Source: a virus. Taken from it: DNA of 5,738 bases. The translations under genes were made by a program, and so were the position numbers. This document shows positions 1 through 5,738 of this stretch, piece after piece. The stretch's first letter is position 1. Each line of letters starts with the position of its first letter. The notes beneath the pieces are model-generated. The model ran no database searches. It saw nothing but the letters and a program-made list of their open reading frames with translations, and was not told the DNA's origin. Where the stretch lies: positions 1-5,738 of the IMG/VR virus record IMGVR_UViG_3300023545_000089. One strand, written 5' to 3'.

Positions 1-55
1 GCGGATGCTCAGCGGCAACTGGTTAAACTGTTCCCGCTTCTCGTTCATCATGTTC
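1..55. repeat. Terminal direct repeat: bases 1-55 are identical to 5684-5738. It is the overlap left when a circular 5683-nt genome was linearised, not a biological repeat.
   Basis: The first 55 nt (gcggatgctcagcggcaactggttaaactgttcccgcttctcgttcatcatgttc) recur exactly at the window end. A minus-strand ORF reads continuously across the junction. Confidence 0.95.
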
Positions 56-345
56 ATGTATTCGGTGTAGGTCTGCGGCAGCTTGCTTGTGTCGATGTAC
101 CAGCCCGGCTTTGCCAGCACACTTTCGTCGCCGGCAGCGTATCGGCTCAGAATTGCCATGACGTCGCATTCGTCTTTATAGCTCTGGATTTTTTCGTATG
201 TGTCCACTTCGCCGACCTTTTCCAGATACGGCTGCCCTCGGTCGTCGTATCGCTCCTTGTACTCCGGCTCAAACCGGTTGCCCGGGTTGTTCGGCAGCGC
301 CAGTGGTTTTTTGTCCTCGTAGGGTTTAAAGATTCTTACTCCCAT
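1..345 (-). CDS. N-terminal segment of the same 168-aa VP3-like protein (MGVRIFKPYEDKKPLALPNNPGNRFEPEYKERYDDRGQPYLEKVGEVDTYEKIQSYKDECDVMAILSRYAAGDESVLAKPGWYIDTSKLPQTYTEYMNMMNEKREQFNQLPLSIR...). The start is ATG at 345..343. Positions 1-55 duplicate 5684-5738.
   Basis: Hand translation of the minus strand in the frame of the 5522..5734 ORF. The in-frame stop lies upstream at 363..361, and this is the first ATG after it. An RBS AAGGAG sits 7 nt upstream (revcomp of 353-358). The start overlaps the 3' end of the 87-aa ORF by 20 nt in another frame. Confidence 0.6.
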   Translation of the reverse strand, partial: MGVRIFKPYEDKKPLALPNNPGNRFEPEYKERYDDRGQPYLEKVGEVDTYEKIQSYKDECDVMAILSRYAAGDESVLAKPGWYIDTSKLPQTYTEYMNMMNEKREQFNQLPLSIR

Positions 346-589
346 TGAGCTGCTCCTTTTTCATGAGTTCGATGTTGTACATGAGCATTGGCAGTGCCAG
401 CGGCTTGATCTGGCCGCTTTCGTTGTCGTACTTGCCCAGAAGATAGACTCGCTTATCCTCGCAGTCGGCTTTCTCCATCTCCTGTGCCATCCATTTGAAG
501 GTCCGATCGGCTACTTTTTTGTTGACCACGATCAGATTGCCGAAGATGCCAGACAGTTCGTCTTTTACTGCGTATACCTGAAATTCCAT
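326..589 (-). CDS. 87-aa hypothetical protein. It may be the VP5/C-like small non-structural protein of gokushoviruses, but that is not verified.
   Basis: Track ORF. ATG at 589..587 is preceded by AAGGAG with a 8-nt spacer (TAAAGGAGAATCATCATG), and this RBS overlaps the TAA stop of the upstream 39-aa ORF. It is tightly packed in an operon with neighbouring genes. Confidence 0.6.
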   Translation of the reverse strand: MEFQVYAVKDELSGIFGNLIVVNKKVADRTFKWMAQEMEKADCEDKRVYLLGKYDNESGQIKPLALPMLMYNIELMKKEQLNGSKNL

Positions 590-601
590 GATGATTCTCC
601 T

Positions 602-721
602 TTATAAACGGATGCCGCCGCGCGACGGCTTCGGATTGACGTTGATTTTTTTCGTCTTCTTTGCGGTATTGGTGAAGACTCTCTTATCCTTTTTCGGATT
701 GACCGGCATACGATGTGCCAT
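602..721 (-). CDS. 39-aa highly basic peptide MAHRMPVNPKKDKRVFTNTAKKTKKINVNPKPSRGGIRL. It is a candidate J-like/ORF8-like DNA-binding packaging protein.
   Basis: Absent from the ORF track because it is below the length cut-off. Found by hand: ATG 721..719 has a strong RBS AAGGAGG 7 nt upstream, which overlaps the TAA stop of the preceding 34-aa ORF. Its own stop TAA (604..602) is embedded in the RBS of the 87-aa ORF. It has 13 K/R in 39 aa, like the phiX174 J protein and the chlamydiaphage ORF8. Confidence 0.45.
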   Translation of the reverse strand: MAHRMPVNPKKDKRVFTNTAKKTKKINVNPKPSRGGIRL

Positions 722-722
722 A

Positions 723-827
723 TTACTCCTCCTTATCCAGACCCATGGCGTGGTAAATCTTGTCTAACATCGCAAGGATTTTCCTCAGTTGATTAAAAAT
801 CCCGCGGATGTCTTTCAAAGTAATCAT
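723..827 (-). CDS. 34-aa hypothetical peptide MITLKDIRGIFNQLRKILAMLDKIYHAMGLDKEE, predicted to be an amphipathic helix.
   Basis: Untracked. ATG 827..825 is preceded by AAAGGAGGTG with a 6-nt spacer. Its stop TAA (725..723) overlaps the RBS of the 39-aa ORF (GATAAGGAGGAGTAATATG). It is the first gene after the 828-990 intergenic region. Confidence 0.35.
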   Translation of the reverse strand: MITLKDIRGIFNQLRKILAMLDKIYHAMGLDKEE

Positions 828-939
828 GGCAACACCTCCTTTCTTTTCATATTTGTGTGCAAATAGAAGGTTTCTGACAGTGGAGGCAGAGCATTCCTCC
901 TTTACATTTCGCTGCCAGTCCCCTCATGTCAATTTTACC

Positions 940-987
940 AAAAAAAAAAAAAACGCAAGGTCAACTTTCGTCAATCTCACGTTTTTT
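940..987 (-). terminator. Candidate rho-independent terminator downstream of the 52-aa ORF, with a homopolymer of 14 A (plus strand) = U14 on the sense RNA.
   Basis: Sense RNA: AAAAAACGUGAG-[AUUGACGAAAGUUGAC]-CUUGCGUUUUUUUUUUUUUU. The 6-bp core stem has two G.U wobbles and is extendable by A6/U6, with a 16-nt loop and a U14 tail. On the plus strand the wobbles become C.A mismatches, so the structure is stable only in the transcript of the gene strand. Confidence 0.35.
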
Positions 988-990
988 GGT

Positions 991-1149
991 TTATCTTTCG
1001 TATTCTTTGAGTTTTTCACAGATTGCGTTTGTCCATTCGTCATCCATGTTGTACTCTTCTTTTATCTGCTCTCGGTCTTCGCTTCTCCATCCACCGTCGT
1101 ATAGTGCTGCTGCGCAGTTTTCAACTTCTTCTTCATAGTAGCTTTTCAT
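991..1149 (-). CDS. 52-aa very acidic hypothetical protein MKSYYEEEVENCAAALYDGGWRSEDREQIKEEYNMDDEWTNAICEKLKEYER, with 15 D/E against 7 K/R.
   Basis: Untracked. ATG 1149..1147 is preceded by AGGAGG with a 6-nt spacer and sits directly downstream of promoter P1. It is followed by the hairpin/U14 terminator. The plus-strand track ORFs 808..1104 and 926..1138 are antisense to it and lack an RBS. Confidence 0.45.
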   Translation of the reverse strand: MKSYYEEEVENCAAALYDGGWRSEDREQIKEEYNMDDEWTNAICEKLKEYER

Positions 1150-1190
1150 GGTGTGCCTCCTAGTTTGTGGTGTGCTCTTCTTACACCTTT

Positions 1191-1219
1191 ATTATACACC
1201 TAAAACATACATTTGTCAA
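1191..1219 (-). promoter_or_regulatory. Sigma70-like promoter P1: TTGACA (revcomp of 1214-1219), a 17-nt spacer, then TATAAT (revcomp of 1191-1196). It drives the 52-aa ORF.
   Basis: Both hexamers match consensus perfectly with the optimal 17-nt spacing. It is followed by a 5'UTR and RBS cassette that is nearly identical to the one downstream of P2. Confidence 0.5.
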
Positions 1220-1269
1220 GCAGAACTTTGCCTAGATGGCCGTCCGGTCGGCGCTGGTGCGCCGAATGA

Positions 1270-1307
1270 AAAGGACGGCGTAGCTTTCCGTGACTACGTC
1301 GTCCTTT
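1270..1307 (-). terminator. Candidate intrinsic terminator for the P2-RHH-VP4 transcript, 29 nt after the VP4 stop.
   Basis: Sense RNA: AAAGGACGACGUAG-UCACGGAAAG-CUACGCCGUCCUUU-UCAUUC. The stem is 14 bp with one internal mismatch, G+C rich, and is followed by a U-rich tail (UUUUCAUU). A G+C-rich patch with small hairpins (ggcgctggtgcgcc, 1250-1263) separates it from P1. Confidence 0.4.
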
Positions 1308-1335
1308 CCTTTATTGGCCGTCTCCCCCTGGCCAC

Positions 1336-2514
1336 TTATATTTCATCTCTTCTTAATTTGGAGAACTTTTCTTGATTTTTCGCGTCGATGTTGTTATAAT
1401 GTTCTTGCAGACTATAGCCGTGTTGTGCGAGCTGAGCGAATAGAGCGTCGTTGGCGATTTTCCGCCGCTTTCTCTTTATTTGTTTCAGTTCGTCCGACTC
1501 GGCTTTTATTATTAGAGCTTCGTAATCCTTTTCTGTTTCGGCGTTTAGTGGTTCGCTGTTGCTGTGTTCAAGATCAAAGAGCTTGTCGAAGTATGCTGGC
1601 GGTTTACATTTTTTTCCCTTACTCAGCTGGATACTGTCTTTTTGGTATATCTCATCTTTATGGTCTTCGTAGTATCTCCAGCCGATTGATGGTTTTGTGC
1701 TGATTCTGCTATCTTCTTCCTCGATACACATATCGAGGAATTTTTCTTTTGCTTCGCCATATGCTTTCTTGGAACAGTATGCTGCTGTATATGCCATGTC
1801 GTTCCATTCTGCTACTCCGATGATTACGAAGCCTTTTCCCCATATCTGGTTGAGCCATGCACAGGTGTAGTATACTCTGCCTTTCTGTTTTTTATATATC
1901 TTCAGTTCTTTCGGGTCTATGTATAAGCTGTATACGATCGCGTGATAATGCGGTCTGTGCGTTTTCGTGCCGTATTCTCCACCAGCGTAGTACATGAGTT
2001 TATTTTTCATGCCTACTTTTTCATCATAGACTTGGTACATTCTTTCGTGATACTCTGTCCACCTTCTCAGCCTTTTCCAGAATGCCGTTAAATCATCATA
2101 GTCTAGTGTCAGGTTCGTTGTATACTCTCCGCTTGGAGCTTTCAGCACTCCGTTTTTGTCGATGCCTTTTCCTCTTTCGATGTTGATTGGAACGTGCTCG
2201 TTGTCGTATGTCAACGTCAGGAACCATGCCTGATCGTGATACGGCAGTTCCATCTCCATTCTGTTTGCCCAGCTCTTCCGTCGGTCCAGTATGCACCCTT
2301 GGCAGTGCTTACAAGGTAAAATCACGATTTCGCCGGTTTTGATCTTTGCTTTGATTTCTCGCTCTCTTCTGCGCTGCGTTGCTATGTCGTCAGCTGGTTC
2401 ACTGTTTGGCTTGTTCGACATTCCGTATTTGATATAACGCTCTAGTGAGCTGAAAAAATCGTCTCCGTTTTTCTTCGCTCCGAAGATCCTAATGTTGGGT
2501 CTGCCACATGGCAT
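1336..2514 (-). CDS. Replication initiation protein VP4 (HUH rolling-circle endonuclease), 392 aa.
   Basis: Track ORF. It carries RCR motif I FLTLTYD, motif II HYHAIVY (HUH) and a tyrosine-bearing motif III region MAYTAAYCSKKAYGE. The N-terminal Cys cluster (PCKHCQGC) is typical of gokushovirus VP4. RBS GGGAGGTG lies 8 nt upstream of ATG 2514. About 100 extra C-terminal residues are K/E-rich and include KRKRRK. Confidence 0.9.
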   Translation of the reverse strand: MPCGRPNIRIFGAKKNGDDFFSSLERYIKYGMSNKPNSEPADDIATQRRREREIKAKIKTGEIVILPCKHCQGCILDRRKSWANRMEMELPYHDQAWFLTLTYDNEHVPINIERGKGIDKNGVLKAPSGEYTTNLTLDYDDLTAFWKRLRRWTEYHERMYQVYDEKVGMKNKLMYYAGGEYGTKTHRPHYHAIVYSLYIDPKELKIYKKQKGRVYYTCAWLNQIWGKGFVIIGVAEWNDMAYTAAYCSKKAYGEAKEKFLDMCIEEEDSRISTKPSIGWRYYEDHKDEIYQKDSIQLSKGKKCKPPAYFDKLFDLEHSNSEPLNAETEKDYEALIIKAESDELKQIKRKRRKIANDALFAQLAQHGYSLQEHYNNIDAKNQEKFSKLRRDEI

Positions 2515-2537
2515 GGATGTTTCACCTCCCGGGGTCG

Positions 2538-2580
2538 CACTGGGGGGAAATGTCCCTCTTGATTACATTTCCCCCCAGTG
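2538..2580. promoter_or_regulatory. Perfect 16-bp inverted repeat (cactggggggaaatgt / acatttccccccagtg) with an 11-nt loop (ccctcttgatt), 7 nt upstream of the VP4 SD. It is a candidate origin (dso-like) hairpin and/or operator and/or translational control element.
   Basis: Read directly: the arms 2538-2553 and 2565-2580 are exact reverse complements. It lies in the 148-nt spacer between the RHH ORF and VP4. This spacer also contains an AT-rich imperfect hairpin (acaaaaat 2583-2590 / atttttgt 2618-2625). Confidence 0.6.
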
Positions 2581-2662
2581 ACACAAAAATGCGTCTGACG
2601 GTTACTGTCGGGCCTGTATTTTTGTTGCATTCAGTTTGCACGGCGAAGCCGTCAAACGGCTC

Positions 2663-2854
2663 CTAGTTTATGTCTGTTCCGGTCGAGATTGCAATTCTTG
2701 CTTTCTTTCCGTAAGCGTTGATTGCGTCTCTGATACAGTCGGAGTCATTCATTTTGATTTTGTTTATTCTGTTGTAAGTCTGGATTGATTCCAGAGATTT
2801 AAGTTCTTGTTCGGTCAAGTTGATGTTGAAGCGTTTTGCGATTTGGCTCTTCAT
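2663..2854 (-). CDS. 63-aa ribbon-helix-helix (CopG/Arc/MetJ-like) DNA-binding protein candidate MKSQIAKRFNINLTEQELKSLESIQTYNRINKIKMNDSDCIRDAINAYGKKARIAISTGTDIN.
   Basis: Internal start of track ORF 2663..2992: ATG 2854..2852 has a perfect AGGAGG 6 nt upstream and promoter P2 just before it. The longer 109-aa version would overlap VP2 and lacks an RBS. KRFNINLTEQELKSLE matches the RHH beta-strand plus helix A pattern of CopG (KRLTITLSESVLENLE), and SDCIRDAINAY resembles helix B (SAMISVALENY). Confidence 0.55.
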   Translation of the reverse strand: MKSQIAKRFNINLTEQELKSLESIQTYNRINKIKMNDSDCIRDAINAYGKKARIAISTGTDIN

Positions 2855-2893
2855 GGTTAGCCTCCTAGCTAAGTGTGTGATTGGTACACTCAT

Positions 2894-2922
2894 AATATAC
2901 ACCTCTTTTCTCCACTTGTCAA
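2894..2922 (-). promoter_or_regulatory. Sigma70-like promoter P2: TTGACA (revcomp of 2917-2922), a 17-nt spacer, then TATATT (revcomp of 2894-2899). It drives the RHH ORF and probably VP4.
   Basis: The -35 hexamer begins 5 nt after the VP2 stop. The promoter, 5'UTR and RBS are a paralogous copy of the P1 cassette: ...aggtgTATAtT...gtgta...cacac..ctAGGAGGc..accATGaagagc. Both ORFs start with MKS. Confidence 0.5.
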
Positions 2923-2927
2923 CTACT

Positions 2928-3866
2928 TTATGGCAACATTGGAAGACCCGGTAGTAAGCCGAATTGGCCTTTTGCTGCAAGGCCTGCGTCAAGTCGCCCT
3001 TCGTTCTTAAACTCGTGGCCTTTGGTTTCTTGCTCCTGCTGCGTGGTGCTGTCTATCCGCTCGCCTAGCTGGCCCACGGTTTTTGCGCTGCTGCTTACGG
3101 TTTGCTGTTGCATCTGTTCGAGGTGCTCGGCTGTCCAGTAGTCAGAACTTTGTTTCGCGTTGTTGATGGCCGTCTGAAAGTTCTGCACGATCTGTGCGGT
3201 GTTGTTGCCGTAGTCATACATTGCCTGCATGGTCGCGTTTTTGGCTGCTGGTGCTGCCAGAGCCTGAGCGTGTGCGAAGGTCTGACCGCCACCGAGACTT
3301 CCATATCCTCCTGATGGCGTCTGCGCCCCATAGCCGTTATAGGCTGCTAAGATAGGATTCAATCCCGCTGCTTTAAGGTCTGCCACGCCTCTTTGATAGC
3401 TCGTGTTGGCCATTCGCTCTTGCCAGTCTCTTTGAGCTTTGGCCTCAGCTGAGTTATACCGCATTGCGCTTGTTTGGCTTGCTGCGCTCATTGCATTGGA
3501 TGCTAGAGCGTTTCCCATGTTGAGAAGATTGCCCATCATCCATGTACCGGTCTGCAAGTCGTTGGCTGTTTTTGCGTTCTCTGCGTTGAAGTTCGCTGCG
3601 ATTTGACCATTGTTGCCGGTCGGCGTTCCGAGTGCTGTTGCTAGCAGATTTCCCAGTGCGCTTGTGTTGCCGGTTTGGACGCTTCCACCTGCGCTTGTAG
3701 TGTCCTGTGCGGTGCTTCCCATGGTCGTCCCGCTCTGGATAGTCGAGTTCATACTACCCTGCGTTTTGGCGCTGCTGGTGCTTCCTTTAATTGCGCTGTA
3801 GAGTCCATACAGTGTGTTTGCCAGAGTTAGGCCGCCTTTGACAAGGCCCATTAGCCCGATTGCCAT
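2928..3866 (-). CDS. Minor capsid / DNA pilot protein VP2, 312 aa.
   Basis: Track ORF. It has a hydrophobic N-terminus, a long low-complexity G/A/S/T/N/Q region, and the conserved gokushovirus VP2 motif ...QERMANTSYQRGVADLKAAGLNPILAAY. RBS AAGGAGGTGG overlaps the VP1 stop TAA (3879-3881), and the ATG is at 3866. Confidence 0.8.
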   Translation of the reverse strand: MAIGLMGLVKGGLTLANTLYGLYSAIKGSTSSAKTQGSMNSTIQSGTTMGSTAQDTTSAGGSVQTGNTSALGNLLATALGTPTGNNGQIAANFNAENAKTANDLQTGTWMMGNLLNMGNALASNAMSAASQTSAMRYNSAEAKAQRDWQERMANTSYQRGVADLKAAGLNPILAAYNGYGAQTPSGGYGSLGGGQTFAHAQALAAPAAKNATMQAMYDYGNNTAQIVQNFQTAINNAKQSSDYWTAEHLEQMQQQTVSSSAKTVGQLGERIDSTTQQEQETKGHEFKNEGRLDAGLAAKGQFGLLPGLPMLP

Positions 3867-3878
3867 TGTTCCACCTCC

Positions 3879-5525
3879 TTAGATGGTATCAAGGCCCGGG
3901 ATGCTGTAGATAGGCATTGCCCTTGTCCATGTCTGGTCGAAGTAGAAGTTGCAGATGAATTGGCGGCTGTTTTCGCTCTGGACTGCGATCGTGCGGTCGA
4001 TGTTCTCTGTGCCCTCTTTAATCCAGTCGTTCGAGAGAGTCGGCAGTTTCGTGTATTTGTCGGCATAGTGCCAAGCATCCAGAGTCTGGGCGTAGGTGCT
4101 GCGCATTTCGCCTGTGATCATGTTTGTCCGGTATCGGTAGTCTGCCCAAGCTTCCTGATAGCCGAATACTTCTTCGTCCTGTTCGTTGCCCTGTGCGTAG
4201 ATTTCCTGATTAAGCACTGCTTGCTCACCGAGGTTTGCAAGCATCGGGTCATAGTAGGAAAAGCGCGTGCTGCGTGTCCACAGTCGAGAAAGCCCCTGCT
4301 GGTAGCTGTGATCAACTCGTACTGCTGCCAGACCGATGATAAAACCATGTTCCGTTGCGCTGTACGTTGCCATGTTCCGGCTCATCGTGGTCATGGAGAA
4401 TGCTGCAGTGTTGCCCTGCGGACTCGTCGAGTCCGTGCTGGATGTCTGAATGACCTGATTGATGTTGATAGGCAGTCTGTAGCCGCCGATGTATTCCGAC
4501 CGGTCAAGTCGTGCATCCGGACTCGTTACGCCCCAAGCACCCTGTAAGATTTCCTTGTACCGTGTGCCGGTGCGTGCATCTCTTTCCATGATGTGCTGCA
4601 CTGCGATAGCTTGTCGGAGTTCGTTTATGGTTGCTGCGGTTGCATTTGAGAGGTCTGCTCCTAAGTTTATTCCGCCTGTTGCGCCGCTGCTGGTGGTCGT
4701 CATTGCCAGCCCTTTGTCTCTATATGGGCCGTCTCCTATATCCCAGTAAGGCGCAAAGAATGGATTTTCTTCTATTCCTACTTCCGTGGCGATGGCTTTC
4801 ATCTTGTCGGTTTTTGTCGTGACGTCTCCAGTTGACGGATTGTAAAATCCGATTGGTACGCCTCCGGTCATCGGCAGCGTCACGGCCTCGCCTTTCTGAG
4901 GATTCGGCAGGCAGCTTGTGAAGTAGTCCTTGTACTTACATACTTTGAGCGGCAGGCCTCCGGCTTCGGCGTCGGTGAGTGCTGTTCCTGCGTTGCTTCC
5001 TGCGGTCGTGGCGTCCGTCTTGCTCATCGTGACAGGCTGCTGTAAATTTTCGTCTCGAAACCATTCGTTCCAGATTTTGGCATATGCCCGGAAAGGCAGG
5101 CTGTTTACCTGTAGGTTTTCTACTCCGGTCGGAATGCCGAAGTAGTCCGCCAGCGTGCCAACTTTCCAGCCGCCAGTTGGTGCGGTCGTTTTCGGAGTCG
5201 TGTACTCTACTTTTTCAGCCCAGAAGGTGCTGTCGTTCTGACCCATGAGGTTTTCGAAATGCTCCCATAGCAGCCGCGATGGTACGAAGAAGAAGTAAAA
5301 GTCACAGTAACAGTTATCCATGACAGGATACAGCGGAGTGCTCATGCGCATAAGTGCATTGAGATCGATCTTTGCCGTGTCTGCCGGTAGAACTTCGTCA
5401 CAGTAGATCGGAATCAGATCGCCTTCGTTCATGGTCGTCAGCAGGCTATAATCCCGTTTGAATCTTGCACGTGGCACATTTGCATGAGGCACTTGGCTGT
5501 AGTGCTGTTCGGCGTTTCGGTTCAT
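3879..5525 (-). CDS. Major capsid protein VP1 (F-like), 548 aa.
   Basis: Track ORF. Its size and N-terminal region (…RARFKRDYSLLTTMNEGDLIPIYCDEVLPADT…PVMDNCYCDFYFFFVPSRLLWEHFENLMG) are characteristic of gokushovirus VP1. Its start is coupled (ATGA) to the upstream 168-aa ORF. Confidence 0.9.
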   Translation of the reverse strand: MNRNAEQHYSQVPHANVPRARFKRDYSLLTTMNEGDLIPIYCDEVLPADTAKIDLNALMRMSTPLYPVMDNCYCDFYFFFVPSRLLWEHFENLMGQNDSTFWAEKVEYTTPKTTAPTGGWKVGTLADYFGIPTGVENLQVNSLPFRAYAKIWNEWFRDENLQQPVTMSKTDATTAGSNAGTALTDAEAGGLPLKVCKYKDYFTSCLPNPQKGEAVTLPMTGGVPIGFYNPSTGDVTTKTDKMKAIATEVGIEENPFFAPYWDIGDGPYRDKGLAMTTTSSGATGGINLGADLSNATAATINELRQAIAVQHIMERDARTGTRYKEILQGAWGVTSPDARLDRSEYIGGYRLPININQVIQTSSTDSTSPQGNTAAFSMTTMSRNMATYSATEHGFIIGLAAVRVDHSYQQGLSRLWTRSTRFSYYDPMLANLGEQAVLNQEIYAQGNEQDEEVFGYQEAWADYRYRTNMITGEMRSTYAQTLDAWHYADKYTKLPTLSNDWIKEGTENIDRTIAVQSENSRQFICNFYFDQTWTRAMPIYSIPGLDTI

Positions 5526-5738
5526 TCCTTATTTTCTCCTTTCTGTACAGTTTTTTCAGCTGTAGCATCGACCTTCTCTTGTGTCTTTTGTGTATTCTGC
5601 TGAATTTTGATGCCCATTTTGTCGAGCCACTCTTTTTCACCGGCTGTTGCCATCCAGTTTTCGAAGTTCATGCCGAATGCTTGGCGGATGCTCAGCGGCA
5701 ACTGGTTAAACTGTTCCCGCTTCTCGTTCATCATGTTC
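5522..5738 (-). CDS. C-terminal segment of a 168-aa VP3-like (internal scaffolding candidate) protein. The ORF runs off the window end and continues at 1..345 because the genome is circular. Its stop TGA (5522-5524) overlaps the VP1 ATG (5525-5523) as ATGA.
   Basis: Track ORF 5522..5734. The two ATGs at the window edge are internal Mets: in the same frame the ORF extends through the repeat to an upstream ATG at 345..343. The stop/start overlap with VP1 indicates translational coupling. The VP3 identity rests only on size and position. Confidence 0.6.
   Translation of the reverse strand, partial: NMMNEKREQFNQLPLSIRQAFGMNFENWMATAGEKEWLDKMGIKIQQNTQKTQEKVDATAEKTVQKGENKE

Follow-up and report, generated by a model that had tools for sequence, protein, structure and literature searches.

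Microviruses are textbook minimal phages in which gene expression is thought to be set only by the strength of promoters and terminators, a dedicated transcription factor being assumed to be lacking. What, then, does a small gene for a putative ribbon-helix-helix (RHH) protein do directly upstream of the replication initiator gene of such a phage? We address this question for a gokushovirus sequence of 5,738 nt (IMG/VR record IMGVR_UViG_3300023545_000089, positions 1 to 5,738; hereafter the window). The original prediction for this DNA described a promoter (P2) with an inverted repeat, a 63-aa open reading frame (ORF; orf63), a 148-nt spacer with a perfect 16-bp hairpin and the gene of the HUH-type rolling-circle initiator (Rep) VP4, and likened this order to the copG-repB operon of pMV158-family plasmids. 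All of these features are indeed present on the minus strand. Judged by their sequence and by comparison with related genomes, the orf63 product most likely represses both transcription units of this genome, and not Rep alone. Neither the literature nor the family libraries that we searched contain a description of an RHH regulator in Microviridae, and the original prediction likewise knew of no account of such a control of Rep.

Conservation and predicted fold of orf63

The gene orf63 is real and under purifying selection. Unannotated homologues occupy the same position between VP2 and VP4 in six GenBank microvirus records (tblastn), and dozens of microvirus contigs in IMG/VR carry them as well, so that the small ORF expected between these two genes in relatives is conserved in both collections. 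A word-indexed protein search returned seven clusters, all on contigs of at most 5.8 kb, and an exhaustive profile search of 1.8 billion clusters returned 39 representatives of 55-125 aa. The position of the gene, its promoter and its Shine-Dalgarno (SD) sequence are kept in more than 45 genomes. Pairwise ratios of non-synonymous to synonymous divergence (dN/dS) range from 0.04 to 0.26, with values of 0.013/0.214 for the window and its closest relative.

M1, R8, N10 and T14 do not vary among the aligned family members, and N12, L13, R42, A44 and I45 hardly do, within an overall pattern KR-h-N-h-N-L-T, followed by a helix and then by S-D-I-I-R-D-A-I. The predicted secondary structure consists of a beta-strand at about residues 6-13 (KRFNINL), helix A (15-30) and helix B (37-58). 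An N-terminal strand with alternating hydrophobic and polar residues, followed by two helices, is characteristic of the RHH superfamily; hereby, R8, N10 and N12 alternate on the predicted DNA-contacting strand. Based on an alignment of 43 sequences, AlphaFold2 yields a model with a pLDDT of 92.6, in which the N-terminus is extended and two helices span residues 15-30 and 37-58. The N-terminal strand remains unpaired in this monomer, as expected for a lone chain, since RHH proteins are obligate dimers whose strands pair into a two-stranded antiparallel ribbon. A model built from a shallow alignment was of poor quality and gave no matches. Using hhalign, the family profile aligns to pMV158 CopG with a probability of 67% and an E-value of 5e-5. 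This alignment extends from the strand through both helices, A and B, which are separated by an insertion of five residues. Pfam RHH_1 (PF01402) is matched by 17 of 43 family members at E<=1, the curated cut-off being passed by one relative only (P0016, 22.4 versus 20.5 bits). Structure prediction and profile comparison thus show the predicted fold of orf63 to be that of an RHH protein, as had been proposed.

The PDB sequence and profile search with orf63 gave weak matches only (TTHA0139, E = 0.05; meganuclease I-AabMI, E = 0.044), and PHROGs holds no orf63 family and returned only weak matches to a generic repressor family. LAGLIDADG_1, the sole Pfam match of window orf63 (E = 0.022, sub-threshold), was rejected: the protein is too short, the motif is absent and the predicted fold is RHH. 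The likeness of residues 3-46, the strand-helix segment, to LAGLIDADG_1 and I-AabMI (E = 0.02-0.04) was judged to be due to chance or to a shared local motif.

A hexamer array on both strong promoters

P2 had been described as a promoter with perfect -35 and -10 elements. It is present, but it matches the consensus at 11 of 12 positions and is the second-best promoter-like site in the window. A candidate operator covers its -10 element and the expected start of transcription and consists of three hexamers, two direct and one inverted, with 7-nt spacers (Table 1). The last two of these form the inverted repeat AGTGT-N9-ACACT (2890..2872). The same array, with the same offsets, is found on P1, a 12/12 promoter that heads orf52 and the block following it. 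In the whole window GTGT-N9-ACAC occurs twice, compared with 0.03 expected occurrences, and both copies start 5 nt past the -10 of the two best promoters.

In every relative for which upstream sequence is available, a near-invariant promoter and array immediately precede the RHH gene, which supports the proposed arrangement, with a promoter and an operator-like repeat ahead of this gene. There are two exceptions: MG945373 carries an additional ORF between promoter and gene, and in one genome of IMG/VR the repeat differs by one base. The stretch of 60 nt ahead of the RHH gene hardly varies, although the RHH proteins themselves are only 45-55% identical, and the synonymous divergence of orf63 among genomes sharing this upstream region amounts to 0.2-0.7. 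Among 51 distinct promoter sequences from relatives, the -35 element is mostly TTGACA and the -10 element reads TATAWT in all but four. Throughout this set the GTGT/ACAC cores are invariant and the 7-nt spacers are variable, a combination of fixed cores and variable spacers that fits sequence-specific recognition by a protein. The coding-strand promoter-like sites of the RHH-less relatives examined carry no GTGTA hexamers; among the genomes examined, the array is confined to those encoding the RHH protein. Copies of the P1 type occur in several lineages, ahead of different small ORFs. A pattern scan for the operator gave one unrelated sequence as a chance match, present in three large contigs.

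Two further observations concern the ORFs behind these promoters. Those following P1 and P2 in the window both begin with MKS, so one promoter-leader cassette may duplicate the other. In some relatives, members of a family of ~60-aa ORFs (MKY..DNEIRE..APCTEQEF..) lie directly behind GTGTA-type promoters (L004, 3769-3954; L079, ~5490-5672). An ORF of this family also sits between promoter and RHH gene in MG945373.

Transcription units and a model for repression

By its anatomy the genome appears to contain two transcription units, P2-orf63-origin-like hairpin-VP4-terminator and P1-small ORFs (including a J-like one)-VP5-VP3-VP1-VP2. Both start with the same hexamer array, and the boundaries of both fit. 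VP4 is followed by an intrinsic terminator with a strong stem and then UUUU, after which P1 follows next; KX513873 has an equivalent 13-bp terminator after VP4. On the coding strand between orf63 and VP4 no good terminator was found. A small GC-rich hairpin without a U-tract stands right after the orf63 stop codon, and most relatives have a hairpin of other sequence at this position. Folding of the spacer as a whole beats all of 200 shuffles (z = -3.5 as RNA, z = -4.3 as DNA).

The best terminator-like hairpin of the window (2593-2613, nine pairs followed by CTGTATTTTT) also lies in this spacer, on the + strand. It was rejected as a terminator between orf63 and VP4, since its stem contains several mismatches when read on the coding strand. 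On the + strand near 2440-2700 no promoter-like site of at least 9/12 is present, and the hairpin has no partner promoter on this strand.

Given this arrangement, we consider it somewhat probable that the RHH protein binds the GTGTA array and represses P2, which would control its own gene and VP4, and in this genome also P1. Hereby, the orf63 product, probably in the form of dimers, would occupy the hexamers over the -10 element and the transcription start of P2 and block RNA polymerase. It would thereby limit its own synthesis and that of VP4, as CopG limits RepB, and the array on P1 would allow it to limit the structural-gene unit as well. What we infer here is that the protein indeed binds the hexamers, that it represses and does not activate, and that orf63 and VP4 share a transcript. 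The original prediction had suggested a regulated dosage of Rep. As the array is also present on P1, regulation is probably genome-wide and not specific to Rep.

Relation to known RHH systems

The resemblance to copG-repB that had been put forward holds for layout and probable working. In both cases a small RHH gene lies immediately upstream of the gene of an HUH rolling-circle initiator in one apparent transcription unit, a repeat overlaps the single promoter, and an origin hairpin is close by. With a single promoter, a terminator past VP4 and no good one on the coding strand of the spacer, the anatomy of the unit would fit co-transcription of the two genes. Membership in this plasmid family and common ancestry, in contrast, find no support. 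VP4 is a microvirus Rep (PF23343, phrog_942) and not of the RepB (Rep_2) type, and no antisense-RNA promoter like that of pMV158 RNA II, an antisense RNA of the cop-rep spacer with a promoter and terminator of its own, was found on the + strand near 2440-2700. Moreover, tblastn of orf63 against 72,556 plasmids gave no match, which speaks against the suggested plasmid-derived module. Compared to CopG, the loop between helices A and B of orf63 is five residues longer and helix B is longer. The operator of pMV158 covers the -35 element, whereas the candidate operator of orf63 covers -10 and +1; in addition, the same array is found on a second promoter, P1.

Parallels in operator design are found in Arc and Mnt of phage P22 and omega of pSM19035, which are small RHH repressors acting on short direct or inverted repeated subsites that overlap promoters. 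Omega controls several promoters via arrays of short repeats, and the array of the window (direct, direct, inverted, with a 13-bp period) is of that kind.

An origin-like hairpin upstream of VP4

The perfect 16-bp hairpin in the spacer had been regarded as part of the RHH cassette. Its loop on the + strand of the window reads CCCTCTTGATT, and its flank TGACACAA (2579-2586, + strand) is invariant. All relatives keep the hairpin, with the 5' flank TTGTGTCA and the loop (C)ATCAAGARGG fixed and the stem free to change. In an alignment of 21 sequences 91% of the cells are paired and two-sided (compensatory) changes occur at 13 of 19 pairs; the resulting covariation score was reached by none of 500 shuffles. 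An IMG/VR pattern scan, which also gave ~10 chance matches without a stem, detected the hairpin in distant gokushoviruses without an RHH gene, on the strand opposite to the expected one. As the hairpin is found throughout Gokushovirinae, with RHH-less genomes among its carriers, it does not belong to the RHH module. It is older than the RHH cassette and independent of it, a separate element and not an operator.

The loop contains CTTGAT, the core of the phiX174 nick site. According to the phiX174 record, the origin of viral-strand synthesis lies at A4306 (4305/4306) within CAACTTG^ATATT, the gpA nick site being CAACTTG^ATA; unlike the motif of the window, it is located inside gene A and not in a hairpin. 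Comparable hairpins are found in other gokushoviruses. Chp2 (L093, 2904-2941) has a 14-bp hairpin between VP3 and ORF8 with the loop TCTACTTGAT, which it shares with many gokushoviruses, and SpV4 (L095, 512-544) has a hairpin with the loop TACTTGTTAT; the loops of both contain ACTTGAT or ACTTGTT. Further examples are present in L075 (2715-2751) and L076 (2741-2781), and the loop core of the window, CCTCTTGAT, exactly matches the loop that L105 from the sister clade has on its coding strand. In a survey of 82 distinct gokushoviruses, a CTTG(A/T) hairpin was found on the coding strand in 41 and on the non-coding strand in 24; one genome has hairpins of both kinds, and 16 have none by our criteria. 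The window hairpin shares with this class the long, covarying stem, the conserved CTTG(A/T)T loop and the intergenic location, which in the class is most often upstream of VP4. It differs in strand: in the window and its clade of 24 genomes CTTG is found on the non-coding strand, whereas 41 other genomes have it on the coding (presumed viral) strand. The non-Watson-Crick pairs of the stem, read on the coding strand, comprise five A.C or C.A pairs and one T.G pair, which leans towards folding on the non-coding strand in a count too small to decide.

The hairpin is most likely the origin at which VP4 nicks the DNA, and from the analogy to phiX174 we predict a nick between G2561 and A2562 of the + (non-coding) strand. 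In the literature searched, no paper defining a replication origin for Gokushovirinae was found. Conserved hairpins with compensatory changes have been described just upstream of Rep in other microvirus clades, with their function unassigned (PMC9865509).

Evidence against repression and alternative explanations

Several observations weigh against an RHH repressor acting on the hexamers. Window orf63 itself has no Pfam RHH match at E<=1. As the RHH-encoding genomes are monophyletic, shared ancestry could account for the RHH gene and the hexamers being found together. At P1 of KX513873 the two direct hexamers are kept and the inverted one is absent. For the outer pair of the inverted repeat, A-T is seen in 22 sequences, G-C in 18, G-T in 10 and A-C in none, a pattern that RNA base pairing would give, and a compensatory change at this pair distinguishes P1 from P2 within the window genome. 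The repeat also folds at about -4 to -7.1 kcal/mol near the expected 5' end of the mRNA. Finally, in 10 of 44 family representatives the exact C-terminus is an acidic run followed by LPF (EEDLPF, EEDELPF, DDDDDLPF), a tail resembling that of the bacterial single-stranded DNA-binding protein (SSB), for which a plain repressor would have no need.

The pairing pattern and the predicted hairpins, which start no more than a few bases from the expected +1, would be explained if the inverted repeat past the -10 element formed a 5'-terminal mRNA stem-loop that stabilises both transcripts, with the RHH protein acting on another target. We regard this as unlikely. The GTGT/ACAC core of the stem is fixed in the 51 distinct sequences while the loop varies, which is the reverse of what a purely structural stem would show; in contrast, the hairpin upstream of VP4 combines a covarying stem with a fixed loop. 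Moreover, the third hexamer, GGTGTA, lies upstream of the transcription start at the same 7-nt spacing, the absence of the inverted arm at KX513873 P1 argues against an mRNA stem-loop as well, and the element is absent from the promoters of the RHH-less relatives examined. The repeat may nevertheless have a role at the RNA level, alone or besides a role as operator.

The C-terminal tails lead to a second alternative. They occur in members of different subgroups with unrelated linkers (P0005-7, P0020, P0022, P0025, P0027, P0030, P0042 and P0043; likewise in L001, 5273-5485). We take the (D/E)n-LPF tail to be the C-terminal tip motif of bacterial SSB, in which acidic residues precede a final I/L-P-F and through which SSB docks its partner proteins. 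In the orf63 relatives the tail is attached to a predicted dsDNA-binding RHH domain and not to an OB fold, and its presence suggests an interaction of some family members, at the least, with replication or repair proteins of the host. For this reason we retain a replication adaptor as a rival, in which the RHH protein is mainly a replication accessory that binds dsDNA close to the origin hairpin and there assists VP4 or replication proteins of the host, the DLPF-tailed relatives recruiting or titrating host proteins that dock on SSB. TraY, TraM and NikA, RHH proteins as well, assist HUH relaxases at oriT. In all relatives the RHH gene adjoins the origin-like hairpin and the HUH initiator gene, and the invariant hairpin flank includes a GTGT core. 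Still, such an adaptor appears rather unlikely to be the main function. Window orf63 ends ...ISTGTDIN and lacks the tail. The same hairpin, flank and loop are found in RHH-less gokushoviruses, in which the hairpin by inference functions, so that the origin does not need the RHH protein. Furthermore, unlike in the relaxosomes, no conserved RHH-type repeats stand beside the hairpin; the only conserved repeated hexamers sit on the promoters, 290-330 nt away from it (~1.35 kb in case of P1).

It has also to be considered that orf63 is an immunity or carrier-state repressor, by which a resident replicative form would silence both promoters of the same or an incoming related phage and thereby cause a persistent infection with low output or superinfection exclusion. 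The array is present on both strong promoters of the window genome, and its hexamer cores are identical among relatives whose proteins are 45-55% identical and share the same strand residues, which would make cross-repression possible. We consider this role improbable, as neither an integrase nor a dif-like site is present, and searches of 185,579 GTDB species genomes with peptide patterns and a 32-nt promoter/operator pattern revealed no integrated copies. The pseudolysogenic or episomal lifestyle that had been suggested is thus left without direct evidence. An RHH-type antitoxin or a decaying accessory ORF without a role in the phage cycle is very improbable: no toxin-like ORF is present, the next gene being VP4, as would not be the case in a type II toxin-antitoxin pair, and the strong purifying selection and the conserved gene position, promoter and SD sequence speak against decay.

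Inverted hairpin and nucleotide skew

The 24 genomes that carry the motif on the non-coding strand group as a single clade in a VP1 tree. The basal branches of this clade are RHH-less (chicken microvirus mg7_10, gokushovirus WZ-2015a, L103 and L109), with the RHH-encoding genomes nested within; the RHH cassette arose inside this inverted-hairpin clade. The skew (A-T)/(A+T), determined at four-fold degenerate sites of the coding strand, is +0.14 to +0.73 in every member of the clade (window: T 0.13, A 0.37), -0.41 to -0.74 in the nearest sister lineages, and has a median of -0.34 over all genomes with the motif on the coding strand. The strand bearing the nick-site-like motif is the T-rich strand in nearly all genomes. 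Exceptions are some coding-strand-motif genomes with values of up to +0.45, and phiMH2K, which has no hairpin by our criteria and a skew of +0.29.

It seems that one event flipped the hairpin and, over time, the skew; as a single evolutionary event, it has no statistical weight of its own. On the simplest reading of these sequence features, the strand that this clade displaces and packages may be the one antisense to the genes. Transcription would then run head-on against rolling-circle replication, and the RHH cassette could serve to switch transcription off. A joint reading, in which the hairpin, inverted together with its flank, is the VP4 origin, the clade nicks, displaces and packages the antisense strand, the RHH cassette silences transcription and the tail of the relatives links to host replication factors, is possible, though we hold it only tentatively. 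No report of negative-sense microviruses was found in the literature searched.

Genome organisation and further features

The first 55 nt of the window are exactly repeated as its last 55 nt (1-55 and 5684-5738). The window therefore represents one complete gokushovirus genome, circular and of 5683 nt, with 55 nt of overlap from the assembly. Every recognisable gene is encoded by the minus strand (Table 1), and the HYH and Y motifs of VP4 are invariant in the alignment. Closest in GenBank are the pig and human gut gokushoviruses MG945797, MG945569, KX513873 and MG945186, with a nucleotide identity of ~81% over 44-63% of the genome. Where annotated, the nearest records have the gene order VP4-VP5-VP3-VP1-VP2, as does the window. 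The RHH gene had been thought to occupy the place of VP3 between VP2 and VP4. VP3 is, however, intact elsewhere in the window, and the VP2-VP4 interval is thus not a VP3 slot in this lineage. A highly basic 39-aa ORF looks, from its sequence, like a DNA-packaging protein of the J/ORF8 type. An Rfam scan of the whole window (E<=1) matched no family.

Table 1. Coordinates of genes and regulatory features in the window
Feature	Position	Strand	Details and evidence
P1 with array	1169..1219	-	TTGACA-17-TATAAT (1219..1191), 12/12; array GGTGTA (1200..1195), N7, GGTGTA (1187..1182), N7, CACACC (1174..1169)
Intrinsic terminator past VP4	1266..1304	-	stem GGACGaCGTAG / CTACGcCGTCC, then UUUUCAUUC
VP4, HUH rolling-circle initiator	1336..2514	-	392 aa; PF23343 REP_ORF2-G2P 1.2e-13; phrog_942 2.9e-85
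VP4 Shine-Dalgarno	2523..2530	-	GGGAGGTG, 8 nt ahead of ATG; sequence
orf63-VP4 spacer	2662..2515	-	148 nt
Origin-like hairpin	2538..2586		stem 2538-2553 / 2565-2580, 11-nt loop 2554-2564; loop strands with context CCCTCTTGATTAC (window + strand) and GTAATCAAGAGGG; fold and covariation
Small GC-rich hairpin	2647..2661	-	right after orf63 stop
orf63, predicted RHH protein	2663..2854	-	63 aa; ORF, family alignment, Pfam, hhalign, AlphaFold2, dN/dS
orf63 Shine-Dalgarno	2861..2866	-	AGGAGG, 6 nt ahead of ATG; sequence, kept in relatives
Candidate operator at P2	2872..2903	-	GGTGTA (2903..2898, overlaps -10), N7, AGTGTA (2890..2885), N7, CACACT (2877..2872)
P2	2894..2922	-	-35 TTGACA (2922..2917), 17-nt spacer, -10 TATATT (2899..2894); 11/12 consensus
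VP2	3866..2928	-	
VP1	5525..3879	-	Phage_F 1.6e-165
VP3 scaffold	345..1, on across circular junction to 5522	-	168 aa; Chlamy_scaf
VP5	589..326	-	
J-like ORF	602-721	-	39 aa, highly basic, MAHRMPVNPKKDKRVFTNTAKKTKK...; phrog_10695 match over full length
orf52	1149..991	-	52-aa ORF after P1 and its SD

Implications

A conserved RHH protein with a candidate operator on both promoters would provide a subgroup of gut gokushoviruses with a regulatory capacity, possible uses of which include Rep dosage, temporal control, immunity and persistence. The combination of RHH protein and HUH initiator known from rolling-circle plasmids would hereby recur by independent assembly. Beyond the cassette itself, the analysis defines a probable replication origin of Gokushovirinae, namely a hairpin with the core of the phiX174 nick site in its loop. 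It also makes it conceivable that the packaged strand has changed its polarity in one gut clade; if true, the members of this clade would be the first negative-sense microviruses.

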